A stretch of 64,000 bases of DNA, taken from NCBI GenBank assembly GCA_905233545.1, contig CAJOEV010000005.1, positions 1,425 through 65,424 on the forward strand, read 5' to 3'. A model generated the notes under the pieces. It worked only from the letters and a program-made list of their open reading frames with translations, ran no database searches and was not told where the DNA came from. The translations under genes and the position numbers were made by a program. Shown in pieces: positions 4,044-64,000 of this stretch. The DNA is from an uncultured Eubacterium sp. (GTDB lineage: Bacteria; Bacillota; Clostridia; Oscillospirales; Acutalibacteraceae). Each line of letters opens with the position of its first letter. Position 1 is the first letter of the stretch.

Positions 4044-5522
4044 ATGTACAAAATAGGCTTTGATAACGACAAATATAAATCACTTCAGTCATCAAGAATC
4101 CGCGAAAGAATTAACGAATTCGGCGGAAAGCTGTATCTTGAATTCGGCGGAAAGCTTTTTGATGACTACCATGCTTCGCGTGTTCTTCCGGGTTTCCAGC
4201 CCGACAGTAAGCTCCAGATGCTTCTTCAGCTCAAGGACGAGGCGGAAATAGTTATTGTTATTAACGCTCAGGACATTGAAAAGGCAAAACTGCGCGGTGA
4301 CCTCGGAATCACATATGACGATGATGTTGTTCGCCTTATCGGTGAATTCACGGATATCGGGCTTATGGTCGGAAGCGTTGTCTTAACAAAATACACTCCC
4401 TCCTCACGCGTTGAAGCGTTTGAAAAAAGACTTGAGTCAATGGGCTATCCCGTTTATCATCACTATGTTATCGAGGGCTATCCTTCAAATATTTCACAGA
4501 TTGTAAGCGACGAGGGATACGGCAAAAACGACTATATCGAAACCTCAAGAAAGCTTGTTATCATTACCGCACCGGGTCCCGGAAGCGGAAAAATGGCAAC
4601 CTGTCTCTCCCAGCTCTATCACGAAAACAAAAGAGGAATCAAAGCGGGATACGCAAAATTTGAAACCTTCCCGATTTGGAATTTACCTCTGCGCCACCCC
4701 GTTAATATCGCATACGAAGCTGCAACCGCGGACCTCAACGATGTTAATATGATAGACCCGTGGCACCTTGAGGCATACGGAAAAACAACGGTTAACTACA
4801 ACCGCGATGTTGAAATCTTCCCCGTTTTAAAGGCAACCTTTGATAAGATTTACGGCGAATGCCCCTATAAATCACCCACCGATATGGGCGTTAATATGGC
4901 TGGCAAGTGCATTATTGACGACGACGCGTGCAAAGAAGCTTCGAATCAGGAGATAATCCGCCGTTATTTCAAAGCACTTTGTGCAAGCGTTAATTCGCCT
5001 GCTGCAAAGGAAGAAGTATATAAGCTTGAGCTTCTTATGAACCAGGCAGGAATAACGGAAACACACAGAAAATGTATTCTTCCTGCAAGAAAGGTTGAAA
5101 AAAGAACAAAACAGCCCGCTGCAGCTATTGAGCTTAACAACGGCGAAATTATAACGGGCAAAACAAGCGAGCTTCTCGGCTGTTCGTCCGCAATGCTTCT
5201 CAACGCGCTTAAAACGCTTGCAGGCATTGACGATGAAACATTACTCATTCTTCCCGAGGTTATCAAGCCCGTTCAGACGCTTAAGGTAAATTATCTCGGC
5301 AACCACAACCCGAGACTTCATACGGACGAAACTCTGCTTGCGCTTTCTGTTTCGGCTGCAACGGATAAAAATGCAGCTGCAGCGCTTGCACAGCTTAAAA
5401 ATCTTAAAAATACGGAAATGCATTCAACGGTTATGCTCTCTCCCGTTGATGACAGCACGCTCAAAAAGCTCGGAATCAGAGTAACCTGCGACGCAAAGAC
5501 AAAAAAGCAGGCTATTCAGTAG
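4044..5522 (+). CDS. DUF1846 (UPF0371) family protein
   Basis: 492 aa starting MYKIGFDNDKYKSLQSSRIRERINEFGGKLYLEFGGKLFDDYHASRVLPGF, typical of the family. Confidence 0.85.
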   Translation: MYKIGFDNDKYKSLQSSRIRERINEFGGKLYLEFGGKLFDDYHASRVLPGFQPDSKLQMLLQLKDEAEIVIVINAQDIEKAKLRGDLGITYDDDVVRLIGEFTDIGLMVGSVVLTKYTPSSRVEAFEKRLESMGYPVYHHYVIEGYPSNISQIVSDEGYGKNDYIETSRKLVIITAPGPGSGKMATCLSQLYHENKRGIKAGYAKFETFPIWNLPLRHPVNIAYEAATADLNDVNMIDPWHLEAYGKTTVNYNRDVEIFPVLKATFDKIYGECPYKSPTDMGVNMAGKCIIDDDACKEASNQEIIRRYFKALCASVNSPAAKEEVYKLELLMNQAGITETHRKCILPARKVEKRTKQPAAAIELNNGEIITGKTSELLGCSSAMLLNALKTLAGIDDETLLILPEVIKPVQTLKVNYLGNHNPRLHTDETLLALSVSAATDKNAAAALAQLKNLKNTEMHSTVMLSPVDDSTLKKLGIRVTCDAKTKKQAIQ

Positions 5523-7916: not shown

Positions 7917-8288
7917 ATGGAATACGTAGCAACAACTAACGCACCGAATGCAATCGGTCCTTATTCCCAGGCGGTTAAGGCAAACGGATTGCTTTTCACC
8001 TCGGGACAAATTGCAATCAACCCGAAAACAAACACCGTTGAAGCAAAAACCATTGAGGAGCAGACAACTCAGGTCTGCGAAAACCTCAAGGCAGTTGTTG
8101 AGGCGGCAGGAACATCAATGGAAAAGGTTGTTAAAACCGTTTGCTTCCTCGCCGACATAAATGACTTTAGCGCTTTCAACGAAATCTACGGCAAATATTT
8201 TGTTTCAAAGCCTGCGCGCTCCTGCGTTGCGGTCAAGGATTTGCCAAAAGGCGTTTTGTGTGAAGTGGAACTTATAGCAGAGCTTTAA
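7917..8288 (+). CDS. ridA: RidA family reactive-intermediate (enamine/imine) deaminase
   Basis: 123 aa with APNAIGPYSQAV...GQI motif. Sits downstream of ilvA. Confidence 0.9.
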   Translation: MEYVATTNAPNAIGPYSQAVKANGLLFTSGQIAINPKTNTVEAKTIEEQTTQVCENLKAVVEAAGTSMEKVVKTVCFLADINDFSAFNEIYGKYFVSKPARSCVAVKDLPKGVLCEVELIAEL

Positions 8289-8301
8289 GCTCTGCTTTTT
8301 T
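8277..8301 (+). terminator. intrinsic terminator of ridA
   Basis: GCAGAGC-TTTAA-GCTCTGC followed by TTTTTT. The stop codon lies in the loop. Confidence 0.8.
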
Positions 8302-8302: not shown

Positions 8303-8387
8303 ATTGAGAATGGAGAATTGAGAATGGAGAATTTCGGGTCGCTTCGCTCCGCACCCCTAAAACCTAACACCTAACACCTAAAAAACC
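8303..8387. repeat. heptamer-arm element with non-matching arms (GAGAATG left, CCTAACA right)
   Basis: ATTGAGAATGGAGAATTGAGAATGGAGAAT, then core TTCGGGTCGCTTCGCTCCGC, then ACCCCTAAAACCTAACACCTAACACCTAAAAAACC. Confidence 0.75.
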
Positions 8388-8389: not shown

Positions 8390-8418
8390 TTGCCATAAGT
8401 CTTGTATAATGCTATAAT
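8390..8418 (+). promoter_or_regulatory. sigma-A-like promoter (TTGCCA-17-TATAAT)
   Basis: TTGCCA at 8390..8395 and TATAAT at 8413..8418 with a 17-nt spacer. It lies about 28 nt upstream of the structured element. Confidence 0.55.
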
Positions 8419-8445
8419 GTAATGTGGAATATATTGTGGTGGTAT

Positions 8446-8724
8446 TAAGCAGGCTGAATCCGAAACACAAGCGGTTTTCAGATGCATATTTCCCTTTATA
8501 CTTCACAAAATTTCTTGAAAGACGCAAGTCTTCCTTCAAAATCTTGTTTCGCCTAAAAGAAAATCTGCTATCTGAAAACTGCTGCGCATTTCTCAGCCAG
8601 TCATTTTTTAGATAGTTTCGTCGTTAATCGACGAAGTTTTACCGGCGTAAATCGAGGAGATTATGGCGAAAATATCAGGAAAGGACGGCTGAGAAACGAT
8701 TGGATTTCGGGTTCAGCCTGCTTA
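8446..8724 (+). ncRNA. structured repeated element, copy 1 (unclassified; 5' leader of rlmB)
   Basis: 20-bp terminal helix TAAGCAGGCTGAATCCGAAA / TTTCGGGTTCAGCCTGCTTA. Internal helices are CGGTTTTCAGAT/ATCTGAAAACTG and TTCTCAGCC/GGCTGAGAA, plus hairpin TTTCGTCG-TTAA-TCGACGAA. Homologous to 63494..63715 on the other strand. Confidence 0.7.
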
Positions 8725-8727: not shown

Positions 8728-9483
8728 ATGAAAAATGAAAATATAAAGAATAACGATAATTTAATAATCGGCAGAAATGCGGTGCTTGAACTTCTCAAAA
8801 GCGGACGCGAAATTGAAAATGTTCTTGTTGCCAAGGGCGAAAGAGAGGGCTCGATTAACCATATTCTTTCGCTTTGCAGGGAGAAAAAGATTGTTGTGAA
8901 AACCGTTGACAGAAGAAAGCTCGATTCGCTTTGTGCAGGCGCAAATCATCAGGGTGTTGCGGCAAATGTTCCCTCCCATGAATATTCGAGCGTTGATGAT
9001 ATTCTTGCTCTTGCCGAAGAAAAAGGCGAGCCCCCATTCATAATCATCTGCGACGAGATTGAGGACAGCCACAATTTAGGCGCAATAATAAGAACTGCCG
9101 AAGCGTGCGGAGCGCACGGAATAATTATTCCCAAAAGGCGCAATGTCGGGCTGAATTTTGTTGTTGCAAAAACAAGCTGCGGCGCGCTTGAATATATGAA
9201 GGTTGCAAGAGTCGGCAACCTTGCACAGACGATTGACGATTTGAAAAAGAAAAACATCTGGGTTTATGCCGCCGATATGGACGGACAGCGCTGGGACAAA
9301 ACCGATTTTTCGGGCGGTGCGGCGCTTGTTGTCGGAAGTGAGGGCAGCGGAGTGGGCAGGCTGATAAAAGAAAAATGCGATGTTACCGTTTCGCTTCCGA
9401 TGCTCGGCAAGGTCAATTCCCTCAACGCTTCCGTTGCAGCAGGAATAATTATGTACGAAATTGCGAGACAGCGGTTGGATTAG
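8728..9483 (+). CDS. rlmB: 23S rRNA (guanosine-2'-O)-methyltransferase RlmB (SpoU/TrmH family)
   Basis: 251 aa with IIGRNAVLELLKSG N-terminal domain and a SpoU C-terminal part (LVVGSEGSGV...SLNASVAAGI). Confidence 0.85.
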   Translation: MKNENIKNNDNLIIGRNAVLELLKSGREIENVLVAKGEREGSINHILSLCREKKIVVKTVDRRKLDSLCAGANHQGVAANVPSHEYSSVDDILALAEEKGEPPFIIICDEIEDSHNLGAIIRTAEACGAHGIIIPKRRNVGLNFVVAKTSCGALEYMKVARVGNLAQTIDDLKKKNIWVYAADMDGQRWDKTDFSGGAALVVGSEGSGVGRLIKEKCDVTVSLPMLGKVNSLNASVAAGIIMYEIARQRLD

Positions 9484-9524
9484 GTGTTAGGTGTTAGGTG
9501 TTAGTGTGGCGATTCAGAATCGCC
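9481..9524. repeat. heptamer array (TAGGTGT x3.5) + GGCGATTC-AGA-ATCGCC hairpin
   Basis: TAGGTGTTAGGTGTTAGGTGTTAGTGTGGCGATTCAGAATCGCC. The first TAG is the rlmB stop codon. Confidence 0.75.
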
Positions 9525-9543: not shown

Positions 9544-12087
9544 ATGAGTGAAAATTTATCAATTGAAGAAATAATTGCAAAAGCCGAAGAAATCAAGGCG
9601 CAGGCTGAAAAACAGCTAAAAAGCGCCGAGCAAAAGCTCGATGAACAGGCTAAGGCTGCAATTGACGAGGTTGTTGTTGACGAAAAAGCCGTTGTCGACA
9701 AGATAACAAGGGCTTTTGAGCGCATTGAAGAGGAAGAAACAGTTAAAGAGTTCATACCTTCAAAGGATAAGAAAACAAAAACGGTTACTCTTCCGAATGA
9801 TGATGACATTAAAATCGCTGAGCCCGTTGTCAGCAGTGATAAAACAATAACTGTCAACATTAAGGAAAACGACAGCGACACAAAGATTGCAGAGCCCGCT
9901 GTCAACAGCGACAAAACAATAACCGTTAACATTAAGGAAAACGACGACGATACAAAGATTGCAAAGCCCGTTGTCAACAGCGAAAAAACAATAACTGTTA
10001 ACATTAAGGAAACCGACGATGATACAAAGATTGCCGATCCCGTCGGTGATGACGAAAAAACAAAGCAGATTGCATTTGTTTCAAAGGCAAAGCACAATAA
10101 GGAGAGCGACCTTCACGAAATTCCGACAATTGTTGCAAAGGAAAACCTTATTGACGGATTTGATGTTGCTCCCGAGGGTGATTTTGTTCCCGAAACGGGC
10201 GACCAGATAACCTTTGAGGGCTTTGATGACGAAATCGAAGAGGTCCCGACGATTGACGAGGATGTTGCCGAGCAGATTCTTGAGGAGCGCAGGCGCGAAA
10301 AAGTTGTAAAATTCCGTTTGTTCGGTCCCGATGAAACGGATTTGAAGCTCGGAAACGACAACGAAATTGAAGAGGAATATGTTTCTCGAAACGAAACAAA
10401 CGAATTCTTAAGAAATCTGCTTGCAAGCAGAAGGGCTCAGAAGCTCCGCACAATATTAACGGGAGTTATTGAAATATTCCTCATTCTTCTGACCGTATTT
10501 AAAAACAGCGGCAGGCTTCATCCCGACTTTTTGAACAGTCCGACTCCGTTTTTTATTACGGCAATAATTCTTTATGTCGGCGCTCTTGCAATCAATTTCA
10601 ATTCGATTGTTCAGGGATTCAGAATCAAAAAACATATCAATTTTGATTTTTGCACCAATATAATCTGCATTGCGGTGCTCGTTCACACTGTGGCAATGCT
10701 GTTTAATAACTTCCTTTGGATTGATAACGGCATACTGTTTGCCGCATTCGGCTGTTTTGCGCTTCTGATGTCGTCGCTCGGCAAATCAAAAATGCTCAGC
10801 CGTACCATTGATAACTTCAAATTTGTAACCTCGTCAAGCAATAATTTCACACTTGAAAATGTTGCAAACGATATCGACGCCGAACGAATCTGCCGCGGAC
10901 TTGTTGAGGGCGAGGCAAACGTGATAACAAGTGTTCAGACTGATTTCCCGACGAACTTCCTTGAAATTTCATATAAAAACGAGCCCGCAAACAAGATTTC
11001 AAGAAAAATTCTTCCGATTTCCATTGTCCTGAATCTGATATTGTTTGTTGTTGTCGGCTTCCTCGATAATTTCAACACGGCATTCAATATGCTGATGTGC
11101 GGACTCTGTGTTTCGCTTCCCTGCTGCGGATTGTTTTTAACAAATTCAACCCTCTGCGATGTGAGCAGTGCGCTTAATGAATACGGCGCAAGAGTTTGCG
11201 GATACGAGGGTGCGGCTATGGCGTACAGCGCAAACACAATGGTTATGGAGGCAAGCGACCTCTTCGGCAAAAACAGCTGTGAAATGCACGGAATCAAGAC
11301 CTTTGACAATGCAAAGGTTGACGACGCAATCATTCATGCTGCGGCGGTTATGACCCAGACAAAAAGTCCGCTTGCCCATGTTTTTGATGATGTTATCATC
11401 GGCAAGCAATCAATTCTTCCGAGGGTTGACAAGATAAGCTATGAGGATAAACAGGGCACTTCGGGCTGGATTTATAACAAAAAAGTTCTTGTCGGAAACC
11501 GCACAATGCTGAAAAATCACGGCGTTCCCGTTCCGAGTGAGAGCTTTGAGAAAAAGCATTCAATAAGAGGAAGAAAGGTGCTTTATCTTTCAATCGATTC
11601 AAAGCTTACGGCAATGTTTGTTGTCAGCTACTCAGCCGAGCCGAATCTTAAAAGAGAGCTGAGAAAGCTTGAAAAAAGCGGAATCACAATTCTTGTTAAA
11701 AGCACCGACCCGTATATCAACGAAGAGAGCATGGCAAAGCTTTTCTCGCTTCCGAAGGGCTTTATAAGAGTTCTTAATTCTTCCTCCGCAATGGTTTATG
11801 AAAAGTATTCTAATATGCATGTTGACAAATCTCCCGCATATGTTGTTCACAACGGAACAGCGCTCGGCTTTGTTTCGGCAATGCGTGCTTCGGAAGTTAT
11901 TATCAGCCAGAGAAAGCTCATTTCCTTCCTCTCGCTCTTTGGCTCTGCGCTCGGGTTCGGCGTTGTTGCTCTTCTTGCAATACTCGGCGCATATACCCAG
12001 CTTTCGGCAGTCAGCATAATTATTTTCCAGCTGATATGGAACGCATTTGTTCTTGCAATATCCAAAATCAGAGGTATCAGCTTATAA
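9544..12087 (+). CDS. P-type-ATPase-like membrane protein lacking the DKTGT phosphorylation motif, with a long repeat-containing acidic N-terminus
   Basis: 847 aa. The C-terminal half resembles P1B-ATPase TM/HAD regions (SLPCCG in a TM segment; ...NTMVMEASDLFGKN... where DKTGT is expected; LYLSIDSKLTAMFVVSYSAEPNLKRELRKLEKSGITILV). Confidence 0.55.
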   Translation: MSENLSIEEIIAKAEEIKAQAEKQLKSAEQKLDEQAKAAIDEVVVDEKAVVDKITRAFERIEEEETVKEFIPSKDKKTKTVTLPNDDDIKIAEPVVSSDKTITVNIKENDSDTKIAEPAVNSDKTITVNIKENDDDTKIAKPVVNSEKTITVNIKETDDDTKIADPVGDDEKTKQIAFVSKAKHNKESDLHEIPTIVAKENLIDGFDVAPEGDFVPETGDQITFEGFDDEIEEVPTIDEDVAEQILEERRREKVVKFRLFGPDETDLKLGNDNEIEEEYVSRNETNEFLRNLLASRRAQKLRTILTGVIEIFLILLTVFKNSGRLHPDFLNSPTPFFITAIILYVGALAINFNSIVQGFRIKKHINFDFCTNIICIAVLVHTVAMLFNNFLWIDNGILFAAFGCFALLMSSLGKSKMLSRTIDNFKFVTSSSNNFTLENVANDIDAERICRGLVEGEANVITSVQTDFPTNFLEISYKNEPANKISRKILPISIVLNLILFVVVGFLDNFNTAFNMLMCGLCVSLPCCGLFLTNSTLCDVSSALNEYGARVCGYEGAAMAYSANTMVMEASDLFGKNSCEMHGIKTFDNAKVDDAIIHAAAVMTQTKSPLAHVFDDVIIGKQSILPRVDKISYEDKQGTSGWIYNKKVLVGNRTMLKNHGVPVPSESFEKKHSIRGRKVLYLSIDSKLTAMFVVSYSAEPNLKRELRKLEKSGITILVKSTDPYINEESMAKLFSLPKGFIRVLNSSSAMVYEKYSNMHVDKSPAYVVHNGTALGFVSAMRASEVIISQRKLISFLSLFGSALGFGVVALLAILGAYTQLSAVSIIIFQLIWNAFVLAISKIRGISL
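9799..10066 (+). repeat. 72-bp in-frame tandem repeat x3.7 (24-aa unit DDDTKIAEPVVNSDKTITVNIKEN)
   Basis: Units start at 9799, 9871, 9943 and 10015 (the last is partial). Confidence 0.85.
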
Positions 12088-12153
12088 ATGCAAAGTGCAA
12101 AATGCATAATGCAAAATGACCTAAAACCTAACACCTAACACCTAAAACCTAAA
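12087..12153. repeat. two abutting heptamer arrays without core (AATGCAA-type then CCTAACA-type)
   Basis: AATGCAAAGTGCAAAATGCATAATGCAAAATG + ACCTAAAACCTAACACCTAACACCTAAAACCTAAA. It spans the gap between two convergent stop codons. Confidence 0.7.
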
Positions 12154-12847
12154 TATCATACTCATCATTGAACATTGCTTCATATTCAAGTTTTTTGATG
12201 TCAAAGCTCGGTTTGCAGGACAGTTTATTTCTGTCAGCATTCTGAGCTTTTTCTTTTTCTCTTTTCCTGCTCCAGCTCAGAAGCGTTGCATAGTGAGAAG
12301 CATAGTCCTTGCCCGTTGAGGCAATATATGTTGAAAGCTCGTCTATCAGATAAATAAGTCCCAGATTTTTGAGCTTTTCATATTCTTCATCTGATAAAAT
12401 TATATTTTCAAAATCTCCATATTTCTTGTTTGTCTTATCATTCTTATCATTATTATCATTCTTATCATTATTGTTTGTCGTTAGCTCTGCGTTATCACTG
12501 CGTTGATACTGCGTTAACGGTGCGTTAGAAATGATTTCAGTTTCCTGATAAGTGCAGTAATTAAGCAGTTTTATCCGCGAATAGCGGTGCGTTGAAATTA
12601 TTGAAATTTCGCCAGAGCTTTCAAGCTTTTTTAATGCCGTTCTGACTTGCTGATATGTTATCCCAAGTTCCTCTGCAAGCCTATATGCCGAGGTCACCCG
12701 TTCCCCCGTTCCGACTTCAATGCCCTTCCATCTTTTCGGCATGTGATTCACCGTTAAAAGAAGGTGCAAAAATACCGCCTTGACATTGTTATCCTGGTAC
12801 CATTCCCAATTTACCATTTTTCTGTGTAGCTTAATCCAGCCGTCCAT
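12149..12847 (-). CDS. phage/plasmid-type replication-organizer-like protein (N-terminal wHTH, C-terminal DnaD-like domain)
   Basis: MDGWIKLHRKMVNWEWYQDNNVKAVFLHLLL... is typical of Firmicute phage replication proteins. The C-terminus YASHYATLLSWSRKR is DnaD-like. It has a low-complexity NNDKNDNNDKNDK linker. Confidence 0.55.
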   Translation of the reverse strand: MDGWIKLHRKMVNWEWYQDNNVKAVFLHLLLTVNHMPKRWKGIEVGTGERVTSAYRLAEELGITYQQVRTALKKLESSGEISIISTHRYSRIKLLNYCTYQETEIISNAPLTQYQRSDNAELTTNNNDKNDNNDKNDKTNKKYGDFENIILSDEEYEKLKNLGLIYLIDELSTYIASTGKDYASHYATLLSWSRKREKEKAQNADRNKLSCKPSFDIKKLEYEAMFNDEYDI

Positions 12848-13043: not shown

Positions 13044-13131
13044 GGGAGGGTCGGGAGACCCTCCCCTACAATTTTTAATTGTCCGGGTAAAGCGAGAAAC
13101 CAAAAACTCGCAACTCGGAGCTCGCAACTTT
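13044..13131. repeat. REP hairpin with CTAC tail + half module (core + GAGTTGC-type arm)
   Basis: GGGAGGGTC-GGGA-GACCCTCCC-CTAC, then ACAATTTTTAATTGT, then CCGGGTAAAGCGAGAAACC, then AAAAACTCGCAACTCGGAGCTCGCAACTTT. It ends at the GH95 stop codon. Confidence 0.8.
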
Positions 13132-15229
13132 AAAAGACTTCTTCTTTAATAATCTTTCCGTTTTCAAACTCAAGATTAAGCGTTTTATTTCCGTAGAGCT
13201 TGATTCCCTTAACATATCCGCTCCAGTTTTTCGGAACACATCTTCTCTTAAACATCTCGGCAATGCCTGCTGCAACGCCGAAGTTTCCGTCAATCTGGAA
13301 GGGCGGATGAGCGTCGAACATATTGGGATAGCTTCCGCCGTGCCTGTATCCCACGCCCTCGGTAAATATCGGATACAGCTGATTTTTAATAAGAGTCATT
13401 GCATTTTCGGGATTATCCAGCCTTGCCCAGAGGCAAACCTTCCAGCCGAGCGACCAGCCCGTACCTCCGAAGCCTCTTGCATAGAGTGACGCTCTTGTTG
13501 CCTCTCTGATTTCCTCGCTCTGCTGAACGGCGGAGGGATAAACGCAGTAAAGATGGCTGACATGGCGGTGTTCGGGCTCTTTTTCCTCGTACTCCTTAAT
13601 CCACTCGTTGATTCTTCCGTCGCTTCCAATCGGAATGGGCGGAATTTCGGGTGTTTCAAATCCGAAGGCTCTGCAGTTTTCGAAGAATTCTTCAAGTATT
13701 CCGATATCCATTGTCGGCATATATGTAAGGCAAGCCCTTGTTCCGTTGTCAATAAAGGTGTTTTCGGGTGATGAACTCGGACAGGTTACATTAACGCCGT
13801 CCTTTTCAACAAGATAATCGTTGTAGAAATCAAGCACCTCTTTGAAACATGGCTTCATTTCTTCAAAAAGCGCCTTGTCCTCGGTATATCTGTAGTGTTC
13901 AAAAACCTGGTTGAGCATCCACGGAAGTGAACTGTTCCAATATGCGTAGCTCTCGGCGTGCGCTTTTCCGAGCGGGTCGCCTGCAGGACAGCTTGCTCCC
14001 CAGATATCGCTGTTATGATGTGCAACCGAGCCCGAGCAGTTATAGTAGTCCTTTGCGGTAACTCTTCCGTTTTCAATCATATGCTTAACCTGCTCGAAGA
14101 ACGGGCTGAAGCATTCCGAAAGATTGCAGATATCGGTGCACCAATAGTTCATTTCGGTGTTGATGTTCGTTGTGTAGTTCGATGACCAGGGCGCTCTGAG
14201 ATGTTCGTTGAAAATTCCCTGGAGGTTTGTTGCCTGAGTACCCTCTCGCGAGGAGGCAATGGTTAAATATCTTCCGTACTGGAACAGAAGTGCGGCAAGA
14301 TTGTTGTCCTTGTTTGGATGTTTTTGAAAACGCCTGATTCTTCTGTCCGTCGGAAGCTCTGTTTCCTCGCTGCCCAAATCGATTTCAACTCTGTTAAACA
14401 GCGAAGAATGGTCGGCAATATGCTCTTTGAGCATTTCACCGTAGTTTTTCGCATTTGAAAGATACGAAAGTGCGCGCGCTTTTGCGTCCGCTGTGGGCAT
14501 TGATTTATAATCAACAAAGCTTGTTGCAAGAGAAACGAAAATTGTTGTCTCTTCCTGCGAATTAATCAATATGCGGTCCTTTACGAACTCAGCGTTTCCG
14601 ACAACTCTTACGGCTGCACAGCAATTCATTGCGTTTTTTCCGTAATCGAAAACAACGCCGGTGTTATAATAAGGAGGCATACAAATTTCGGGAGCACGCC
14701 CCTCCATAAAGAGCGTTCTTTCGTCACAGTAAACCTTGTGCTTGAGCTGGCTCTTAAATCTGATTTTAAGAGATACATCCTCTTTGCACTTTATGTTAAT
14801 AACAAGAAGCTGGGCGGGATGGCTTACAAAAACAGTCTGACAAACAGCGTCATTCTCTGTTTTTGAAACGCCTGTTTCAAGGTCGAGTTCCCTTGTGTAG
14901 CCCTGCGCCTTTGCGCCTTCGTAGTCAATAATCAAATCCCCGAAAGGAAGATATGCTTCGCTCCAGTGACCGTGAAATTCAGTGTTTGCAATGCGGTTTG
15001 CTTCGTCGTGGTCCTCGTGAAATATCGCTGTTCTGAGCGCTTCGAGGTATTCGCCCGCGTCCTTTTTGTTGTGGTCCTTCGGATATCCCGACCAAAGGGA
15101 GTCCTCGTTAAGAGCAATTCTCTCCCTTTTAAGATTTCCGAAAACCATTGCGCCGATTCTGCCGTTGCCGACGGGCAGCGCTTCTTCCCATCTGATTGCT
15201 CTTCTCTTGTACCAAAGCTTGTTCTGCAT
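13130..15229 (-). CDS. glycoside hydrolase family 95 (alpha-L-fucosidase-like)
   Basis: MQNKLWYKRRAIRWEEALPVGNGRIGAMVFGN...NEDSLWSG is a GH95 N-terminal signature. Start at ATG 15229, preceded by GGGAGGTGG. Confidence 0.85.
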   Translation of the reverse strand: MQNKLWYKRRAIRWEEALPVGNGRIGAMVFGNLKRERIALNEDSLWSGYPKDHNKKDAGEYLEALRTAIFHEDHDEANRIANTEFHGHWSEAYLPFGDLIIDYEGAKAQGYTRELDLETGVSKTENDAVCQTVFVSHPAQLLVINIKCKEDVSLKIRFKSQLKHKVYCDERTLFMEGRAPEICMPPYYNTGVVFDYGKNAMNCCAAVRVVGNAEFVKDRILINSQEETTIFVSLATSFVDYKSMPTADAKARALSYLSNAKNYGEMLKEHIADHSSLFNRVEIDLGSEETELPTDRRIRRFQKHPNKDNNLAALLFQYGRYLTIASSREGTQATNLQGIFNEHLRAPWSSNYTTNINTEMNYWCTDICNLSECFSPFFEQVKHMIENGRVTAKDYYNCSGSVAHHNSDIWGASCPAGDPLGKAHAESYAYWNSSLPWMLNQVFEHYRYTEDKALFEEMKPCFKEVLDFYNDYLVEKDGVNVTCPSSSPENTFIDNGTRACLTYMPTMDIGILEEFFENCRAFGFETPEIPPIPIGSDGRINEWIKEYEEKEPEHRHVSHLYCVYPSAVQQSEEIREATRASLYARGFGGTGWSLGWKVCLWARLDNPENAMTLIKNQLYPIFTEGVGYRHGGSYPNMFDAHPPFQIDGNFGVAAGIAEMFKRRCVPKNWSGYVKGIKLYGNKTLNLEFENGKIIKEEVF

Positions 15230-18432: not shown

Positions 18433-18496
18433 TTGCTCACCTCATTGTCAATTTTCTCTATTATACACTATAAATATTGCTTTATCAAGCAATATT

Positions 18497-18528
18497 TTAG
18501 GTATTAGGTGTTAGGTTTTAGGTTTTAG
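18497..18528. repeat. isolated heptamer array (TAGGTNT x4.5)
   Basis: TTAGGTATTAGGTGTTAGGTTTTAGGTTTTAG, 10 nt from a parS site. Confidence 0.65.
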
Positions 18529-18538
18529 TTAATATAAA

Positions 18539-22250: not shown

Positions 22251-22270
22251 ACTTAACCTCTAATTTATTT

Positions 22271-22328
22271 GTTCGAGCGAAGCGAGTAACCGAAAACTCG
22301 GAACTCGGGGCTCGAAACTCGCAACTTT
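22271..22328. repeat. half module in the mnmE-mnmG junction (core + GAGTTNC arm)
   Basis: GTTCGAGCGAAGCGAGTAACC + GAAAACTCGGAACTCGGGGCTCGAAACTCGCAACTTTT. It ends at the mnmE stop. Confidence 0.75.
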
Positions 22329-23712: not shown

Positions 23713-23796
23713 CCGTGCGCAGCACCCGACAACTCGGAACTCGGGGCTCGCAACTCGCAACTTATTAATGGCGAACGCCAACCGTCCGCCATTAAT
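23713..23796. repeat. half module in the jag-mnmE junction (core GTGCGCAGCACCCG + GAGTTNC arm + ATTAATGGCG palindrome)
   Basis: CCGTGCGCAGCACCCG + ACAACTCGGAACTCGGGGCTCGCAACTCGCAACTT + ATTAATGGCG...CGCCATTAAT. Confidence 0.7.
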
Positions 23797-28206: not shown

Positions 28207-28250
28207 AGGGCGATTCTAAAATCGCCCCTACATCCTAACACCTAACACCT
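28207..28250. repeat. REP-like hairpin with CTAC tail + CCTAACA array
   Basis: GGGCGATT-CTAA-AATCGCCC-CTAC at 28208..28231, then ATCCTAACACCTAACACCT. It fills the gap between two convergent stops. Confidence 0.75.
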
Positions 28251-28892
28251 TTATTCAGGAATGTATGTGTGAAGGTCTTCCATAATAAGACTTTCTGCCT
28301 CTTCAATAAGCTCGTTTAGAACCGTTCTCTGTGATGAGTCAACGCCCGTTCTTGAACGGTCCTCAATCAAAACGAATTTTGCATCCTGGATTGCAATTGC
28401 CGCGGAAGCTAAATCCTTGGCAACGGAATAATCGATTTTAAACAGCTCTTTGGGAATAATGCCCGCTTTTGCAAGAGTCAGCGCACCGCGGTAGAGAGTT
28501 AAAAGATAGTAGTCGTATACAAAACTCTTCTCGGCAGTGTCCGATGAGCTTGCGGAAACAGTATCAAGAAGATATTTTGTTGCCTTTGAGAGCATTGAAA
28601 CGGAATACATCTTGTCGCTTGAAAACGCTGTGAGATAGTTATCGTCAATACCGTTTCTGTTTTCGCTGACACCGAGAAGGTAATCGGTTGTAACACCGTA
28701 GTATTCACTGCATCTGATAATAAAATCAAGTCCGCATTCCCTTATACCTTTTTCGTAGTGCGAAAGAAGAGCCTGGGAAATTCCAAGCTCGGTAGCTGCC
28801 TTTTTCTGGCTTATTCCGCGTTCCTTTCTCAGCTGGGAAAGGACGGACGCAAATTTGGTAATCTTTTCTTTGTTCTTTTCCATTAATGTCAC
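28251..28892 (-). CDS. XRE-family helix-turn-helix transcriptional regulator
   Basis: LSQLRKERGISQKKAATELGISQALLSHYEKG HTH motif. 213 aa. Confidence 0.8.
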   Translation of the reverse strand: MTLMEKNKEKITKFASVLSQLRKERGISQKKAATELGISQALLSHYEKGIRECGLDFIIRCSEYYGVTTDYLLGVSENRNGIDDNYLTAFSSDKMYSVSMLSKATKYLLDTVSASSSDTAEKSFVYDYYLLTLYRGALTLAKAGIIPKELFKIDYSVAKDLASAAIAIQDAKFVLIEDRSRTGVDSSQRTVLNELIEEAESLIMEDLHTYIPE

Positions 28893-30222: not shown

Positions 30223-30251
30223 GCAGACGGAAAATTCCGTCTGCTTTTTTT
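30223..30251 (+). terminator. intrinsic terminator
   Basis: GCAGACGG-AAAATT-CCGTCTGC followed by TTTTTTT. Confidence 0.8.
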
Positions 30252-30690
30252 ATGCATAATATTCATCCTTGCCGATTAGCCATTTTCTTGGGTTTTCATC
30301 AATGTATTGAAGATGATAAAAATAATCTTCGTCGTCGCGGATAATGTGGTCGTAGAATCCCGTTTGCCATATGTTTTCACCGATTTGTTTATTGCAAAAT
30401 CGTTTTAATGTTCCAATATGCCTTGAAAGAAGTGAATTTGTAGGGAGCGGCGACCTCGACGCTCCATTGGTATCCGTTTTCTCAACCGAAACAATCAAAT
30501 GAATGTGATTCGGCATTATCACATATTTTTCAAATTTTATTTCTTCGTATCTTTTGTTCATCTCGATGATGTTGTTCTCAACAATTATGCCGTTTTTTGA
30601 TAAAACAATTTGCGGAGCGTCGGGGTCGCCGCTCCCTACAATAAAAAACGGGCGATTCGCGAATCGCTCCCACTGCCTAAAACCTAACAC
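30250..30690 (-). CDS. REP-associated tyrosine transposase (RAYT, IS200-like HUH), probably N-terminally truncated
   Basis: HUH motif in VIMPNHIHLIVSV. C-terminus is WQTGFYDHIIRDDEDYFYHLQYIDENPRKW. It lacks the YDYS..YFITICT N-terminal strand present in the paralog at 58958..59449. The N-terminal 17 aa are read from repeat sequence. Confidence 0.75.
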   Translation of the reverse strand: MLGFRQWERFANRPFFIVGSGDPDAPQIVLSKNGIIVENNIIEMNKRYEEIKFEKYVIMPNHIHLIVSVEKTDTNGASRSPLPTNSLLSRHIGTLKRFCNKQIGENIWQTGFYDHIIRDDEDYFYHLQYIDENPRKWLIGKDEYYA

Positions 30691-30712
30691 CTAAAACCTA
30701 ACACCTAAAAAA
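30614..30712. repeat. REP hairpin (CTAC tail) + GGGCGATTCGCGAATCGCTCCC hairpin + CCTAAAA/CCTAACA array
   Basis: GGAGCG-TCGGGGTCGC-CGCTCC-CTACAAT, then GGGCGATTCGCGAATCGCTCCC, then ACTGCCTAAAACCTAACACCTAAAACCTAACACCTAAAAAAA. It overlaps the 5' end of the RAYT ORF. Confidence 0.8.
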
Positions 30713-30736
30713 AACTGCCTCAAATGAGGCAGTTTT
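30707..30736 (-). terminator. intrinsic terminator after the LCP gene
   Basis: CTGCCTCA-AA-TGAGGCAG flanked by A/T runs. Confidence 0.75.
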
Positions 30737-35020: not shown

Positions 35021-35145
35021 AGTTGCGCGTTACGAGTTTCGCGTTGCGCGTTTTCGGTTTCTCGGCTTTGCCTCGTTCAATTATTATTGTCTGAGCGCAG
35101 CGAGTAACCAACAACTCGGAGCTCGGGGCTTGCAATTCGAAACTT
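35021..35145. repeat. heptamer-arm element, full copy A (GAGTTGC-type arms, palindromic double core)
   Basis: AGTTGCGCGTTACGAGTTTCGCGTTGCGCG, then TTTTCGGTTTCTCGGCTTTGCCTCGTTCAATTATTATTGTCTGAGCGCAGCGAGTAACC, then AACAACTCGGAGCTCGGGGCTTGCAATTCGAAACTT. Confidence 0.85.
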
Positions 35146-46424: not shown

Positions 46425-46600
46425 AAATGAAATATTGATATACAATATGAAATAATTTGCTAAAGAAAATTGTGAAATATCTCGTTTTGCTCGATATGAA
46501 ATAAAATTAATCCATTATACGCCGCAGGCGTATTTCATTGCAAAGCAATTTCATATTCTGAAAGAATATTTCATTAATCCGCAAGGATTAATTTAATTGG
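46425..46600. repeat. probable heptamer-arm element (ATGAAAT-type arms, TCGTTTTGCTCGAT core, small palindromes)
   Basis: TGAAAT/ATTTCA units occur on both sides. The centre carries TACGCC-GCA-GGCGTA and ATTAATCC-GCAA-GGATTAAT. Confidence 0.5.
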
Positions 46601-47582: not shown

Positions 47583-47650
47583 AATAGTACCCTCCTAATA
47601 ATTAATACTTATATATTATACAACATTATATATGGTAATGCAATAAAAAA

Positions 47651-47707
47651 GTTGAGAGTTCCGAGTCCCGAGTTGCAAGTTTTCGCATCGTTTTGCTCCG
47701 ATTATAT
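47651..47707. repeat. half module (GAGTTCC/GAGTTGC arm + core TTTCGCATCGTTTTGCTCCGATTATA)
   Basis: GTTGAGAGTTCCGAGTCCCGAGTTGCAAG + TTTTCGCATCGTTTTGCTCCGATTATA. It ends at the ribU stop. Confidence 0.7.
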
Positions 47708-48325: not shown

Positions 48326-48566
48326 GCAAAAAGAGAACCCCGACAGTTTCTGTCGGGGTGATATTGTTTTAACAATATGATTTCTCTCGTCCGGACTTAT
48401 GATTTTCATCAATTACCGTCGGTTACGGAATTCCACCGTATCAGTCCTAAAAATTGTATCAATTTTTTGGAGTCGCAGACTTTTACTGCCGGTGAGGAAT
48501 AGGCATTCGATTACATTTTTTGTTACACAATATGTAGTTGAACGCTGCACCTCGCCCCGAAATATT
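48326..48566 (-). ncRNA. FMN riboswitch (RFN element) with terminator expression platform
   Basis: The minus strand carries CACCGGCAGTAAAAGTCTGCGAC, GGTGGAATTCCGTAACCGACGGTAA and AGTCCGGACGAGAGAA. The terminator is CCCCGACAG-AAA-CTGTCGGGG followed by TTCTCTTTTT (48326..48359). Confidence 0.85.
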
Positions 48567-48840
48567 TTGTGTTTTTGGTGCTTTTATTATAGCAAAAACC
48601 CCGATTTTGTCAATTTTTGTATTACATAATTAAATAAGTGTAATACAAAATACCCATTTTTATACACATAATTCGAAAATTGTCTATTAAACTATATTGA
48701 AATTTGACAACACCGATTAAATCTGTTATAAACTTAGCCGTTGCGAAGATATTACAAATTTGTAACAAAAAAACCAAAAAGGAGTAATTGTTATTAGTAT
48801 CAAAGTTAAAGCAGTTTCCGTTGTTCTTGCTGCAGCGTTC

Positions 48841-58885: not shown

Positions 58886-58957
58886 CTCTCCTTAAGGGGA
58901 AGGCAATATATACAAACAGCAGCACCACAAATCCGTGATGCTGCTTTGTATTTTTCT

Positions 58958-59449
58958 TTATGAATAGTATTCGTCTTTGCCCATTATCCACTTTTTTGGG
59001 TTTTCTTCAATATACTGAATATGATATAAATAATCTTCTTCGTTTCTGATAATGTGGTCGTAGTATGAGCGCTGCCAGAGTGTTGAGCCATATTTATGTG
59101 TTGTATATGACTTTATGTCTCTGATGATGTCCTGTAGGGGAGGGTTTCCGCGCCCTCCCATCATAGGTTTGCAGATTGAGACTAACAAATGAATATGATT
59201 AGGCATAATAATGTGTTTTTCAATACATATATTTTTAAACCTTGAATTTGTATATTCGATTGATTTCTGAACCTCAAGACCAATATCGGAAAGTTCTATT
59301 TTGGGGAGGGCGCGGAGACCCTCCCCTACATTTTTTACGGAAGAGAGAACACATTTCATATCCTCAGTACATATAGTTATGAAATATTTTCCGTTTGAGG
59401 AATAATCATAATCCTTCAACCTTGTAGGTTTTCGGTCTTTCTTTTCCAT
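58958..59449 (-). CDS. REP-associated tyrosine transposase (RAYT, IS200-like HUH), full length
   Basis: LKDYDYSSNGKYFITICT N-terminal strand. HUH motif in IIMPNHIHLLVSI. C-terminus WQRSYYDHIIRNEEDYLYHIQYIEENPKKW. Confidence 0.85.
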   Translation of the reverse strand: MEKKDRKPTRLKDYDYSSNGKYFITICTEDMKCVLSSVKNVGEGLRALPKIELSDIGLEVQKSIEYTNSRFKNICIEKHIIMPNHIHLLVSICKPMMGGRGNPPLQDIIRDIKSYTTHKYGSTLWQRSYYDHIIRNEEDYLYHIQYIEENPKKWIMGKDEYYS

Positions 59450-60852: not shown

Positions 60853-62417
60853 AGTATTTCCTCCAGTATATCGTTAATTTGTTCATTTATATTCTGCCCG
60901 TTATTGTAAATAACATAATCACTGTTTTCAATATAATAATCATCAGAAAACTGGGCGTTTATTCTCTGCATCGCCTGCTCGGTTGATATAACATCTCTGC
61001 CGATTATTCTTGAAAGCCTTGTTTCAAGCGGAGCGCTTACGCAGATTATTTTATAGCATTCCTTATCAGCATTAGCCTCAAAAAGCTGGGGCGCGTCCAA
61101 AACGCAGGGAATTTCGCTTTGCTTTTTGCACTCCTCAATAATTACAGGGTGCATAATTTTATTCAAAATTGCGGTGTTTTTCTTGTTTTTAAAGGCTCTT
61201 TCTGCAAGAAGCTTTCGGTTAAGCTCACCGTTTTCAAGAATATCTTTACCGAATGCATTTTTAAGCTCAGTGAGCAGGGGAGAGCCCTTTTCAGTGAGCT
61301 TTTTTGCGATTATATCGCTGTCAATAATCTTGAAACCGCGCTTTTCTAGTTCTTCGCAGACATAGGTTTTTCCTGCGCCCGTCGGTCCCGTAAGACCGAT
61401 TGTGAAGGGCTTGTTCAAATCTATAACATTGAACGCAGCCGCGCGGATAAGCCTGTTGAAAACAGCCGTTCCGACACCGTCTTTATTCGGAATTCTTGCA
61501 TAAACCTTTTGCGCGCCGAGCTCGTCAAGCTCGCGGAGCTTGTCGAAAAGGAGCTTTGCCTGGCTTAAATCGTCGTTTTCCTTTCCGAATGTTACCTTCG
61601 GAACGGTTATGTTATCCTCTTCAAAGCAGAGCGCAAATGCGCCCTTTTTTGAATTGACAAATTTTTCATAGCCTTCCCTGTCAGCGTCAACAACAATAAT
61701 CTTCGCTTTCGGGGAATAGTGCTTGTATTTCATACCCGGGGAGGCGGCTTTTTCGCCCTCTTCCATTTCGCCGAGAACGGCTTTTGCAAGCTCGGTTTCG
61801 CCGATAACGCCTTCAATCATTTCCTTTGTTATCGCACCCGGTCGAAGAATAACGGGAGTTTTCTCAGCAAGGGTTATAACCGTTGATTCAACGCCGAATT
61901 CACAGTCTCCGCCGTCAACAATCGCGTCGATTTTTCCCATCATATCGCTGATAACATGGGACGCTTTTGTGGGCGAGGGAAGTCCGCTTGTGTTTGCGCT
62001 CGGAGCAGCAACGGGAACGCCTGCAGCCTCAATAACGGCTCTTGCAACCTCGTTTTTCGGCATACGGAAGGCAACTGTATCAAGTCCTCCGCTCACCGTA
62101 TCGCCGACAAGAGCACTCTTTTTAAGAATTATTGTCAGCGGAGCGGGGAAAAATGCGTCAATAAGGCGCTGTGCTTTTTCGGGAATTGTTTCAACAAGCT
62201 GATTTATATCCTCTTTTTTTGCAATGTGAACAATCAGCGGATTGTCGCTCGGTCTGCCCTTTGCACGGTAAATGCTTTTAACCGCCTCATCATCAAGGGC
62301 GTTTGCGCCGAGTCCGTAAACCGTTTCAGTCGGAAATGCAACAAGACCGCCGTTTTTGATTATTTCACCTGCAAGCCCGATATCCTGTTTTGAAGTTGAA
62401 AGTATTTTTGTTTTCAT
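60849..62417 (-). CDS. fusion protein: L-threonylcarbamoyladenylate synthase (Sua5/YwlC type) + dephospho-CoA kinase
   Basis: The N-terminal ~340 aa carry GGLVAFPTETVYGLGANA...KGRPSDNPLIVHI plus the Sua5 domain. The C-terminal ~185 aa carry IGLTGPTGAGKT and ...IMHPVIIEE... (CoaE). Confidence 0.8.
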   Translation of the reverse strand: MKTKILSTSKQDIGLAGEIIKNGGLVAFPTETVYGLGANALDDEAVKSIYRAKGRPSDNPLIVHIAKKEDINQLVETIPEKAQRLIDAFFPAPLTIILKKSALVGDTVSGGLDTVAFRMPKNEVARAVIEAAGVPVAAPSANTSGLPSPTKASHVISDMMGKIDAIVDGGDCEFGVESTVITLAEKTPVILRPGAITKEMIEGVIGETELAKAVLGEMEEGEKAASPGMKYKHYSPKAKIIVVDADREGYEKFVNSKKGAFALCFEEDNITVPKVTFGKENDDLSQAKLLFDKLRELDELGAQKVYARIPNKDGVGTAVFNRLIRAAAFNVIDLNKPFTIGLTGPTGAGKTYVCEELEKRGFKIIDSDIIAKKLTEKGSPLLTELKNAFGKDILENGELNRKLLAERAFKNKKNTAILNKIMHPVIIEECKKQSEIPCVLDAPQLFEANADKECYKIICVSAPLETRLSRIIGRDVISTEQAMQRINAQFSDDYYIENSDYVIYNNGQNINEQINDILEEIL

Positions 62418-63490
62418 TATTCTTCGCTTGCCTTGAGCTTTTCGGCTGTGTCGGCGGTGATTAAAGCGTCAATCAGCTCGTCGAGGTCACCGTTTAATAT
62501 CTGCTCAAGCTTATATAATGTCAGATTGATTCTGTGGTCGGAAACTCTGCCCTGGGGATAGTTATATGTTCTTATTCTTTCGCTTCTGTCGCCCGTTCCG
62601 ACCTGGGCTTTTCTTTCGCCTGCAATCTCGGCGTCGTGCTTTGCCTTTTCGGCGTCATAGAGCCTTGCGCGAAGCACCTTCATTGCCTTTTCCTTGTTTT
62701 TGTGCTGGCTTCTTTCGTCCTGGCATTCAACAACCGTTCCTGTTGGAATATGGGTTATTCTGATTGCGGACGAGGTCTTGTTTATGTGCTGACCGCCTGC
62801 ACCGCTTGAACGGAAGGTGTCGATTTCAAGGTCTTTTTCGTTGAGTTCAAAATCAACATCATCCGCCTCGGGAAGCACTGCAACGGTTGTTGTTGAGGTG
62901 TGAATTCTTCCCTGGCTTTCAGTTTCGGGAACACGCTGAACTCTGTGAACGCCCGATTCAAATTTGAAGCGCGAATATGCGCCGTCGCCGTTGACGGAAA
63001 AGCTGACTTCCTTAAATCCGCCGAGTCCCGTTTCGCTTGCGGAAAGAAGCTCGCATTTGAAGCCCTTTGCCTCGGCGTACATATTATACATTCTATATAA
63101 AACGCCTGCGAAAAGGGCGCTTTCCTCTCCGCCTGCACCGCCGCGGATTTCGATAATAACGTTTCTGTCATCGTTGGGGTCACGCGGAAGAAGAAGGATT
63201 TTCAGCTCCTCGCTGATTTTTTCCATATCCTCTTTGCTCTGCTCAAATTCCTCTTTTACCATCTGGGCAAAATCGGAATCAAGAGAGCCGTCACCAAGCA
63301 TTTCCTTTGATTCCTCATAGGTGTCCTTTGCTCTTTTATATTCTCTGAATTTTTCAACAACGGGGGTGAGCTGTTTCAACTCTTTCATAAGCTTTGTATA
63401 TTGCTCCATATCGGCAATAATTTCGCTTTTGCATACAAGCTCGTTTACCTCGTTATATTTTTTTTCAACTTGTTCTAATTTATCAAACAT
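62417..63490 (-). CDS. prfA: peptide chain release factor 1
   Basis: 357 aa starting [15 protein letters not shown], with the [13 protein letters not shown] motif. Confidence 0.97.
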
Positions 63491-63493: not shown

Positions 63494-63715
63494 TAAGCAG
63501 CCTAAAACCGAAACATAATCGTTTCTCAGCCGTCCTTTCTTGATATTTTCGCCGTAATCTTCTCGATTTACGACAGTAAAACTTCGTCGCTTACGACGAA
63601 ACTATCTAATAAACTACTGGCTGAGAAATGCACAGCAGTTTTTAGATACCAGAAATTTACAAATGCAAAAGAATATGCCTCTAAAAACCGATTAGTTTCG
63701 GTTTCAGACTGCTTA
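63494..63715 (-). ncRNA. structured repeated element, copy 2 (fills the DUF951-prfA intercistronic gap)
   Basis: On the minus strand TAAGCAGTCTGAAACCGAAAC pairs with GTTTCGGTTTTAGGCTGCTTA. It aligns with 8446..8724 except for a roughly 55-nt shorter sub-domain. Confidence 0.7.
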
Positions 63716-63889
63716 TTCCTTTATTGCTTTAATGTTTTTTTCAATTTTATTTCGTGCAACCATAACCTCGCGGCTGCATTTGGTACATCTGATTTTGAAA
63801 TCCGCGCCGATTCGCAAAACCTCAAATTCGTTGTTTTTGCAGGGATGGGGCTTTTTCATAATCAGAATATCGCCGACTTTAACATCCAT
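63713..63889 (-). CDS. DUF951 family small protein
   Basis: Own translation gives MDVKVGDILIMKKPHPCKNNEFEVLRIGADFKIRCTKCSREVMVARNKIEKNIKAIKE. It is below the ORF-track cut-off. RBS is GAGGAAG. Confidence 0.8.
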   Translation of the reverse strand: MDVKVGDILIMKKPHPCKNNEFEVLRIGADFKIRCTKCSREVMVARNKIEKNIKAIKE

Positions 63890-64000
63890 TTTCTTTTTCT
63901 TCCTCTGTGCAGTCTGATATCAATCAATATTATAACACCAACTTTTGCCATTATCAACATAATTAGTATTTTTAAATCATAGTTATTTAATATAAATTTA

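Follow-up and report, generated by a model that had tools for sequence, protein, structure and literature searches.

A probable family of mobile, structure-constrained insertions between Shine-Dalgarno sequences and start codons in ruminant-gut Clostridia

This analysis concerns a structured, non-coding element that occurs twice in a 64,000-nt stretch of DNA (hereafter the window) from an uncultured Eubacterium sp. (contig CAJOEV010000005.1, positions 1,425 to 65,424): once filling the gap between a DUF951 gene and prfA, the gene of peptide chain release factor 1 (RF1), and once in the 5′ leader of an rlmB-like gene. Comparison with related genomes reveals that the element is gained and lost between close relatives, which makes it a currently or recently mobile piece of DNA; its nature as an insertion was missed by the first-pass annotation of the window. 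We regard it with good confidence as a mobile insertion whose structure is under constraint. Our preferred explanation, which falls a little short of an even chance, is that it represents a new low-copy family of such insertions, ~220–280 nt long, whose closing helix rejoins the Shine-Dalgarno (SD) sequence and the AUG of the gene that it has entered. The rejoining mechanism, taken by itself, is proposed tentatively and at best at the same strength.

The two copies and the genes that they adjoin are as follows.
8446–8724, plus strand: element copy 1 (long form), 279 nt, in the 5′ leader of the rlmB-like gene
8728–9483, plus strand: rlmB-like SpoU/TrmH-family RNA methyltransferase gene, 251 aa (PF08032 and PF00588 recorded on an orthologue)
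62417–63490, minus strand: prfA, peptide chain release factor 1, 357 aa (PF03462, PF00472)
63494–63715, minus strand: element copy 2 (short form), 222 nt, filling the whole DUF951-prfA gap
63713–63889, minus strand: DUF951 gene, 58 aa (PF06107 recorded on orthologues)

On the minus strand, the stop codon TAA of DUF951 (63715–63713) provides the first three bases of copy 2, and the end of the copy at 63494 is followed by GTT and then by the prfA ATG (63490–63488). Copy 1 likewise stops 3 nt short of the rlmB-like ATG at 8728. The copies are ~88% identical outside a 57-nt length difference in one arm, the tip of which holds all the extra nucleotides of copy 1, and the window has exactly two matches to the pattern AAAATATCARGAAAGGAC, where 0.02 would be expected. 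Neither the 222-nt nor the 279-nt copy has any coding capacity, since each of the six frames either contains stops or has no start codon. Every measurable detail of the description in the first-pass annotation proved correct: the extent of copy 2 from the DUF951 TAA to 3 nt before the prfA ATG, the presence in both copies of the segments named as conserved, and the shorter variable sub-domain of copy 2, given there as about 55 nt and found to be 57 nt, entirely in the variable arm.

The element has a three-armed architecture. Its two ends pair into a closing helix (P1), which encloses first a variable arm (P2), then a short, invariant junction segment and finally a long arm (P3) whose apex is conserved. 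The parts of copy 2, in mRNA order, are:
63689–63715, minus strand: P1 5′ strand, UAAGCAGUCUGAAACCGAAACUAAUCG, starting with the DUF951 stop codon
63638–63688, minus strand: P2, variable hairpin arm; its 9-bp base helix is conserved and covaries, its tip is variable
63629–63637, minus strand: junction segment UGCUGUGCA, with a 3-bp mini-hairpin, invariant save for one Y position
63522–63628, minus strand: P3, long hairpin arm with the outer helix UUUCUCAGCC/GGCUGAGAAA
63494–63521, minus strand: P1 3′ strand, CGAUUAUGUUUCGGUUUUAGGCUGCUUA, with 3 nt between its end and the prfA AUG, and containing no SD sequence

Read directly from the sequence, P1 of copy 2 (TAAGCAGTCTGAAACCGAAAC / GTTTCGGTTTTAGGCTGCTTA) is 21 bp long and free of mismatches, two of its pairs being G-U, exactly as first annotated. 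In the minimum free energy fold these are followed by a 1-nt bulge and 6 more bp (27 bp with the bulge), and the duplex energy is -38.2 kcal/mol. The whole of copy 2 folds at -87.8 kcal/mol (z = -9.1, with 0 of 200 shuffles as stable), and copy 1 has z = -10.4. Within P3 there is an A-rich internal loop, AAAAUAUCAAGAAAGGAC, and the conserved apex CGAAGUUUUAC-NNNN-GUAAAUCGAG. A model of P3 made of local hairpins was dropped, and a long-range helix supported by a distant member of the family was adopted instead.

This distant member was recognized through six-frame translations of the core, which gave one useful match in a protein database, a spurious open reading frame (ORF; P0255) on the JGI contig L028 (sample 3300028048), where the element occupies 1144–868 on the minus strand. 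Here the junction CTGCTGCGCATTTCTCAGCC, the apex CGAAGTTTTAC-NNNN-GTAAATCGAG and GGCTGAGAAAC are unchanged, and pairing is preserved despite sequence differences in P1, at the base of P2 and in the middle of P3. Across all copies P1 has -32 to -38 kcal/mol, even in L028 with its largely different sequence, and terminal inverted repeats measure 21 bp (27 with the bulge) in copy 2, 20+ bp in copy 1 and 26 bp in L028. In an alignment of five full sequences, three of them from close relatives, 96.6% of cells pair versus 35–45% in controls slid by 1–3 columns, and 16 pairs are changed on both sides versus 1–3 in these controls. None of 500 shuffles reaches the observed values of pairing and covariation. 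Not only P1 but also the internal helices P2 and P3 covary, and partial copies rebuilt from metagenome contigs contribute further compensatory pairs. In L028, a ~1.5-kb ORF-free stretch (~120–1600) holds a ~235-nt non-coding unit twice, the first intact and the second interrupted by the divergent element, together with weak Gut-1-like UGAAAU hairpin arrays at 391–462 and 536–613, which lie below the Rfam threshold.

Evidence for insertion comes from the same junction in relatives, retrieved through RF1 homologues.
Window contig (L002), RF1 100%: DUF951-prfA junction filled
L003–L005, RF1 97% to the window: filled
L001, a metagenome-assembled genome of Oscillospiraceae, 90.5% at the nucleotide level: filled
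L020–L027, RF1 96% to the window: empty
L019, RF1 93% to the window: empty
L006–L008, RF1 92% to the window: empty
L009–L011, RF1 89% to the window: empty

Orthologues of copy 2 are therefore present in L001, in the window contig and in L003–L005. The empty sites, exemplified by L019 (AAAGGAA TAA ACT ATG) and L006 (GGAGAT TAA AAT ATG), show an SD sequence in the final DUF951 codons, the stop codon, three bases and the ATG. The filled site of L003 reads AAAGGAA TAA / GCAG...GCTTA / ACT ATG, and removal of GCAG...GCTTA gives exactly the L019 sequence. The empty sites of close relatives identify the element as an insertion; duplication of a TA is as possible as seamless insertion after the TAA. 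The rlmB site is filled in the window only and is empty in L017/L018 (on the same scaffold as L003) and in one metagenome contig, and with the third site described below, presence/absence polymorphism is seen at all three (prfA, rlmB and DUF1846). The first-pass annotation had named, as grounds for abandoning its view, close relatives whose DUF951-prfA junctions lack the element with unchanged expression. The absence is indeed found in relatives with 96%, 93% and 92% RF1 identity, and this result bears on absence only.

Where the element is present, it is strongly conserved in place. Among the three lineages compared (the window, L001 and L003), it is 93–95.5% identical overall, with 113–115 of 117 positions identical in the junction plus P3 (97–98% for this core), 27 of 27 in the 5′ strand of P1 across the three prfA-site orthologues, and 82–88% in the variable arm P2. 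For comparison, identity is 76–77% at third codon positions of prfA, 62–65% at third positions of the downstream sua5-coaE gene and 67–69% in the DUF951 leader. Even the coding sequence abutting the element is less conserved (76–87% over 90 nt of DUF951 and 84–92.5% over 93 nt of prfA), so that the borders of the element mark the limit of high conservation. The order of similarity among the three copies is the order of the prfA identities of their hosts, most simply explained by vertical inheritance with purifying selection. Such a pattern would not be expected of an inert remnant of a transposon. The element thus stands, as first annotated, as a real, conserved and structured unit under strong sequence constraint.

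A third, independent site confirms that the position before start codons is not due to chance; from the shared geometry of prfA and rlmB, the first-pass annotation had judged chance insertion less likely. A long-form copy precedes a DUF1846/UPF0371 gene in ruminant-gut metagenome contigs (runs X1, X7, X8 and X9), where the filled site reads ..GAGGAGAACG / AGCAG...CTGCT / TCCAATT ATG (as contig, ...TTTTTTGTGAGGAGAACG / AGCAGG...CTGCT / TCCAATT ATG TAC AAA). The order is again SD sequence, a few bases, element, a few bases and ATG, with the element in the orientation of the gene, and the site is empty in L015–L018. The window also has a DUF1846 gene, starting at 4044, without the element; its leader, GGGGGTGAA-CAGGCTCAAT-G, contains one feature of interest.
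4036–4045, plus strand: CAGGCTCAAT, candidate remnant in the DUF1846 leader, overlapping the ATG (4044)

Nine of the 10 bases of CAGGCTCAAT match the 5′ end of the element (CAGGCTGAAT), and the other empty DUF1846 sites (GGAGGAGAAACAT ATG, GGAGGAGACCAAT ATG and GGAGGATTATTAGTGCA ATG) have no such motif. This is suggestive, though not proof, of a scar left by an imprecise deletion, in which the ATG may have been rebuilt from an AT within the element; a chance probability of 0.002–0.01 is a rough estimate restricted to this end and side. A direct jump from DUF1846 to rlmB was also considered and dropped, as the empty rlmB contig of run X1 (depth 6.1 versus 4.4 for the filled DUF1846 copy) belongs to a more distant organism. 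Taken together, all three sites with known context in the clade lie in the spacer between SD sequence and ATG in gene orientation, a target class that by our own estimate makes up roughly 1% of the genome.

The first-pass annotation had located the prfA ribosome-binding region in the 3′ strand of the closing helix and had proposed that this helix must be opened or cleaved for prfA to be translated. Neither proposal is borne out. The 25 nt before the prfA ATG pair with the anti-SD sequence at -3.0 kcal/mol and those before the rlmB-like ATG at -4.1, against a window median of -6.4 and values of -9 to -13 at good sites. This pairing is poor, and the 3′ strand is not the SD sequence. The native candidates lie 5′ of the element.
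63717–63721, minus strand: native prfA SD sequence, AAGGA, within the final codons of DUF951 and separated from P1 by 1 nt
8438–8443, plus strand: GGTGGT, the SD-like sequence of the rlmB-like gene, separated from copy 1 by 2 nt

Moreover, the empty sites place the SD sequence before the insertion point, and at the empty rlmB sites of relatives a purine-rich SD sequence is kept at the position of GGTGGT. With the native SD sequence just 5′ of the element, the ribosome-binding site (RBS) is split, and since the element was inserted between SD sequence and ATG, formation of the helix would rejoin them, the opposite of the earlier logic: closing of the helix probably enables initiation rather than blocking it. 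Such a split RBS should have its SD sequence directly 5′ and its AUG directly 3′ of a stable structure. This is the arrangement at prfA in the window and L003 (AAGGA, 1 nt, P1, 3 nt, AUG), at rlmB (GGUGGU, 2 nt, P1, 3 nt, AUG) and at DUF1846 (GAGGAG, 3 nt, P1, 6 nt, AUG). Two other routes to a start were dropped: the internal loop GAAAGGA as the real SD sequence, which is 46 nt away from the AUG and is not maintained in L028, and a leaderless mRNA from an internal promoter, as no conserved promoter-like site is found near the 3′ end of the element.

Transcription signals around the two copies, both consensus matches only, are:
63929–63957, minus strand: promoter-like TTGATA-17-TATAAT, 11/12 and TG-extended, upstream of DUF951
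8390–8418, plus strand: promoter-like TTGCCA-17-TATAAT, 11/12 and TG-extended, 28 nt upstream of copy 1

A terminator-like hairpin (8276–8296) precedes the promoter-like site of copy 1. The site upstream of DUF951 would place copy 2 within a DUF951-prfA transcript. Inside the two window copies there is neither a conserved promoter-like site nor a convincing terminator. Judging by these matches, both copies should be transcribed within the mRNA of their host gene. Searches for RNA-seq runs that contain this organism gave none.

We therefore favor the following mechanism, in which the closing helix rejoins SD sequence and AUG. The element is inserted in sense orientation into DNA that is predicted to be transcribed, and P1 would close the insertion in the mRNA. 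The single-stranded distance from SD sequence to AUG would shrink to 4–5 bases at prfA and rlmB; at DUF1846 it would be ~9. In every case the width of the helix end has to be added. A 30S subunit could then engage both together, as experiments have demonstrated for genes 25 and 38 of phage T4, where an intervening RNA structure shortens the SD-AUG distance from 22 to 5 nt and from 27 to 11 nt, and where mutations that destabilize the structure lower initiation (PMC3014915). When a ribosome halts at the DUF951 stop codon, the first triplet of P1, it would in addition melt the base of P1 near the prfA AUG and favor coupled re-initiation, a route that may matter in L001, where the upstream SD sequence has decayed. 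A misfolded insert would part the SD sequence from the AUG of a needed gene, and purifying selection would thus keep the fold and probably more. Retention of the SD sequence 5′ of the element in other lineages fits its continued use, although this argument is weak at prfA, because the SD sequence there is partly DUF951 coding sequence.

Several observations weigh against this mechanism or the evidence for it. The T4 structures are small, non-mobile local hairpins, whereas the element is an inserted three-armed domain of 220–280 nt, an order of magnitude larger, with an assigned function that we infer, as we do transcription, folding and translation through it, from sequence. In L001, DUF951 ends in TGA followed by the TAA of the element, i.e. 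tandem stops (2921–2926, minus strand), and the upstream SD sequence is reduced to AAAGAAAATTGA; the split RBS is absent there and cannot be the whole story in this lineage. The element in L028 lies outside any SD-ATG site, the summed spacing at DUF1846 (~9 nt plus the helix end) is long, and the flanks (TA for the prfA and rlmB copies, CG/TG and TC for the DUF1846 copy) leave a target-site duplication ambiguous. In addition, neither a parent or autonomous insertion sequence (IS) with the ends of the element was found in the fetched loci, plasmids and phages, nor a transposase for it. Just past the high-coordinate end of the window, the contig does carry an IS with a DDE_Tnp_1 transposase beside an S1-domain gene (L002, 157–1635), the ends of which (CAATGTCATTAAGTTAA) are unrelated to the element. 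As for the RNA structure, the small alignment with its three close relatives has 16 G-U cells versus 4 A-C cells among sequences that are not independent, and the strand bias is weak, with the sense strand more stable by 20 kcal/mol in copy 2 and not in copy 1. Finally, loop sequences are conserved as much as helices. Simple selection to keep the element folded is therefore insufficient, and excision at the RNA level is kept as a serious rival.

According to this rival, which we consider unlikely though the best of the alternatives, the element is removed from the RNA, either as a new kind of self-excising, intron-like RNA or through cutting at P1 by the host (e.g. by RNase III) with or without re-ligation, so that a normal SD-AUG spacing is restored and selection for accurate removal conserves the core. 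Its sense-only orientation, its functionally constrained sites and its patchy presence among close relatives would all fit, as would a conserved core with a variable arm, ends joined by a helix, conservation in place above that of flanking coding sequence, and the exact L019 empty site obtained from L003 by deletion of GCAG...GCTTA. A near-perfect duplex of >20 bp is the usual substrate of RNase III, and P1 has this size. The element resembles group I and group II introns and the RNase III-excised intervening sequences of 23S rRNA in being structured, sense-oriented, sporadic and located at a constrained transcribed site, with a conserved core, variable peripheral arms and paired ends. Unlike introns, however, it has no match in Rfam 15 at the gathering threshold (riboswitches, ribozymes, group I/II introns, T-box, 6S and large ornate RNAs); at E up to 5–10, where no group I, group II or other ribozyme family appears, there are only chance matches such as plant miRNA hairpins, which differ between copies, and for L028 there is none at E up to 0.01. 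Marks of group I or II splice sites were not seen either: the sequence has no 5′ GUGYG, and the 3′ ends (..GCTTA GTT, ..GCTTA ACT and ..GCTTA TTT) have no conserved terminal G. Intervening sequences of rRNA are not re-ligated and reside in rRNA, whereas the element resides in an RBS, where RNase III cutting without ligation would sever the SD sequence from the AUG. The SD sequence kept 5′ of the element in four of five lineage/site combinations fits removal and is not specific to it.

Less probable still is that the element is an ordinary miniature inverted-repeat transposable element (MITE), derived by deletion from a DNA transposon, moved in trans by a transposase that recognizes the terminal inverted repeats and having no role as RNA, with its position before start codons due to chance or to a preference for TA targets within AT-rich spacers. 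The likeness to bacterial MITEs such as the Correia elements (CREE) of Neisseria, ERIC and RUP is considerable: they too are small and non-coding, with terminal inverted repeats of >20 bp (21–27 bp in the element) that fold into a long hairpin in mRNA. Other points of agreement are TA on both sides at prfA and rlmB, a presence that varies between strains, the possible deletion remnant at DUF1846 and a GGCTGARAA motif found four times in alternating orientation. Transcripts of MITEs generally form stable stem-loops (PMC10969869), and bacterial MITEs can be RNase III substrates and change expression (PMC2649163, PMC10969869, PMC2229807). Furthermore, inverted repeats bound by a single protein would covary too, which is also a caveat on the covariation described above. 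Nevertheless, MITE families have tens to hundreds of copies with conserved termini and free, decaying interiors in old copies, whereas the element has 2–4 copies per genome, with none further in ~460 kb of relatives, and an interior more conserved than its termini; in L028 the core is kept and the termini are the most divergent part, the reverse of the MITE pattern, and P2 and P3 covary. An inert insertion should decay, yet the orthologues are conserved far above neutral sites and flanking genes, as expected under purifying selection. All three clade sites split an RBS in gene orientation within a ~1% target class, the third without TA flanks, and no parent IS with matching ends was found. MITEs of these families are not reported from the spacer between SD sequence and start codon: the terms ‘Shine-Dalgarno’, ‘start codon’ and ‘ribosome binding’ do not occur in a 2024 review of prokaryotic MITEs (PMC10969869).

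The least likely rival, a broader version of the idea in the first-pass annotation, is a cis-regulatory RNA (a sensor or a protein-binding leader) that controls translation of prfA, rlmB and DUF1846 through juxtaposition of SD sequence and AUG or occlusion of the start, at prfA perhaps with release-factor feedback through the DUF951 stop at the foot of P1. It would be suited by conserved loops and an invariant segment within a three-way junction, as in aptamers, by strong purifying selection, by the role of two of the three genes in translation and by the DUF951 stop as first triplet of P1 in the window and L003. Against it, a P1 of -32 to -38 kcal/mol is far too stable for ligand switching, sister lineages lack the element at each of the sites, and the DUF951 stop, UAA or UGA, is never the RF1-specific UAG. 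No ORF precedes the rlmB and DUF1846 copies, the loop GAAAGGA, which resembles an SD sequence, is lost in L028, and the three genes share no pathway.

Among other known families, palindrome-associated elements derived from IS200/IS605 have subterminal hairpins without terminal inverted repeats and insert 3′ of a fixed tetra- or pentanucleotide without duplication. The prfA, rlmB and L028 sites agree with a seamless insertion after (A)TAA, the DUF1846 site (CGA/TGA) does not, and the element does possess terminal inverted repeats. Mycobacterial interspersed repetitive units (MIRUs), reportedly described by Supply et al. in 1997, fill intercistronic stop-to-start junctions and rely on translational coupling; they differ from the element in being 46–101-bp tandem units with small ORFs, with no long closing helix and no three-armed fold. 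A retron msr-msd was dropped, as there is no reverse transcriptase gene beside either window copy, and so was an integron attC site, given the absence of a GTTRRRY core and the excessive length of the element. A guide-like role of the variable arm was rejected too, as the rlmB and DUF1846 copies share the arm and have different flanks. The nearest kin of the element are small non-coding mobile insertions such as MITEs, and no described family fits. Four traits set it apart from MITEs: a niche in the RBS spacer, few copies per genome, a three-armed core that is conserved, and selection in place.

Members of the family are rare and, to the extent of the searches made, confined to ruminant-gut Clostridia. 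Beyond the two copies in the window, a search with nhmmer found none in the ~460 kb of related loci, and strains represented in metagenomes have about two to four element contexts each. A pattern for the conserved 3′ core had one match (the orthologous copy in L001) in 185,579 species genomes and none in JGI metagenomes or IMG/VR. A looser two-block pattern found only the L028 contig in JGI metagenomes and, in IMG/VR, six chance matches, all rejected by nhmmer. BLASTN gave no plasmid match and a single weak 56-nt match among phages, taken as chance. Partial and more divergent members occur in runs X1, X8 and X11. The host clade is a narrow one of ruminant-gut Oscillospiraceae.

The window also contains other repeats and RNAs. 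Arrays of a 7-nt unit (TTAGGTG/TTAGGTT, complement CCTAACA) occur in many intergenic regions, often near GC-rich hairpins (3767–3826, 8353–8385, 9480–9511, 12101–12155, 18495–18533, 28208–28254 and 30657–30714), and one of them lies just upstream of the rlmB promoter-like site. Inverted-repeat pairs TGTAGGGGAGGG...CCCTCCCCTACA, ~145 nt apart, are found at 30438–30641 and 59133–59330 (also 3900–3930 and 13044–13077), with a 114-nt direct repeat beside them (30245–30358 and 58953–59066); these perhaps belong to another family of small repeats or MITE-like elements in this genome. Short intergenic repeats of the AACTCGG/GCTCG type are located at 428–485, 13095–13137, 22269–22327, 23721–23763, 35021–35145 and 47650–47685. 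Two RNAs exceed the Rfam gathering threshold, an FMN riboswitch (48375–48568, minus strand, 70.8 bits) and a Gut-1 RNA (46527–46599, minus strand, 63.4 bits). An 847-aa ORF (9544–12087) contains three in-frame 72-nt tandem repeats (9796–10063) that are 76–82% identical.

To our knowledge, no mobile element is reported to live between an SD sequence and a start codon, and none turned up there in the literature that we searched. An insertion in this spacer should silence the gene, yet the essential-type gene of RF1 has carried the element in lineages separated by ~25% silent-site divergence, and the insert is more conserved than its coding flanks. It is possible, though we would put it below our preferred explanation, that the element defines a new class of mobile structured RNA with a niche in the RBS, being either an excised, intron-like RNA or an insertion whose fold rebuilds the RBS that it splits. 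If so, the conserved three-armed core would be a functional RNA without a described relative. Excision of the RNA, if it occurs, would make the element a new type of intervening sequence in bacteria. If instead the helix rebuilds the RBS, the element would be a natural demonstration of initiation across a structured domain of >200 nt and a ready-made scaffold for the design of conditional RBSs. In both cases the family offers a small, tractable system that links mobile DNA, RNA structure and translation initiation.

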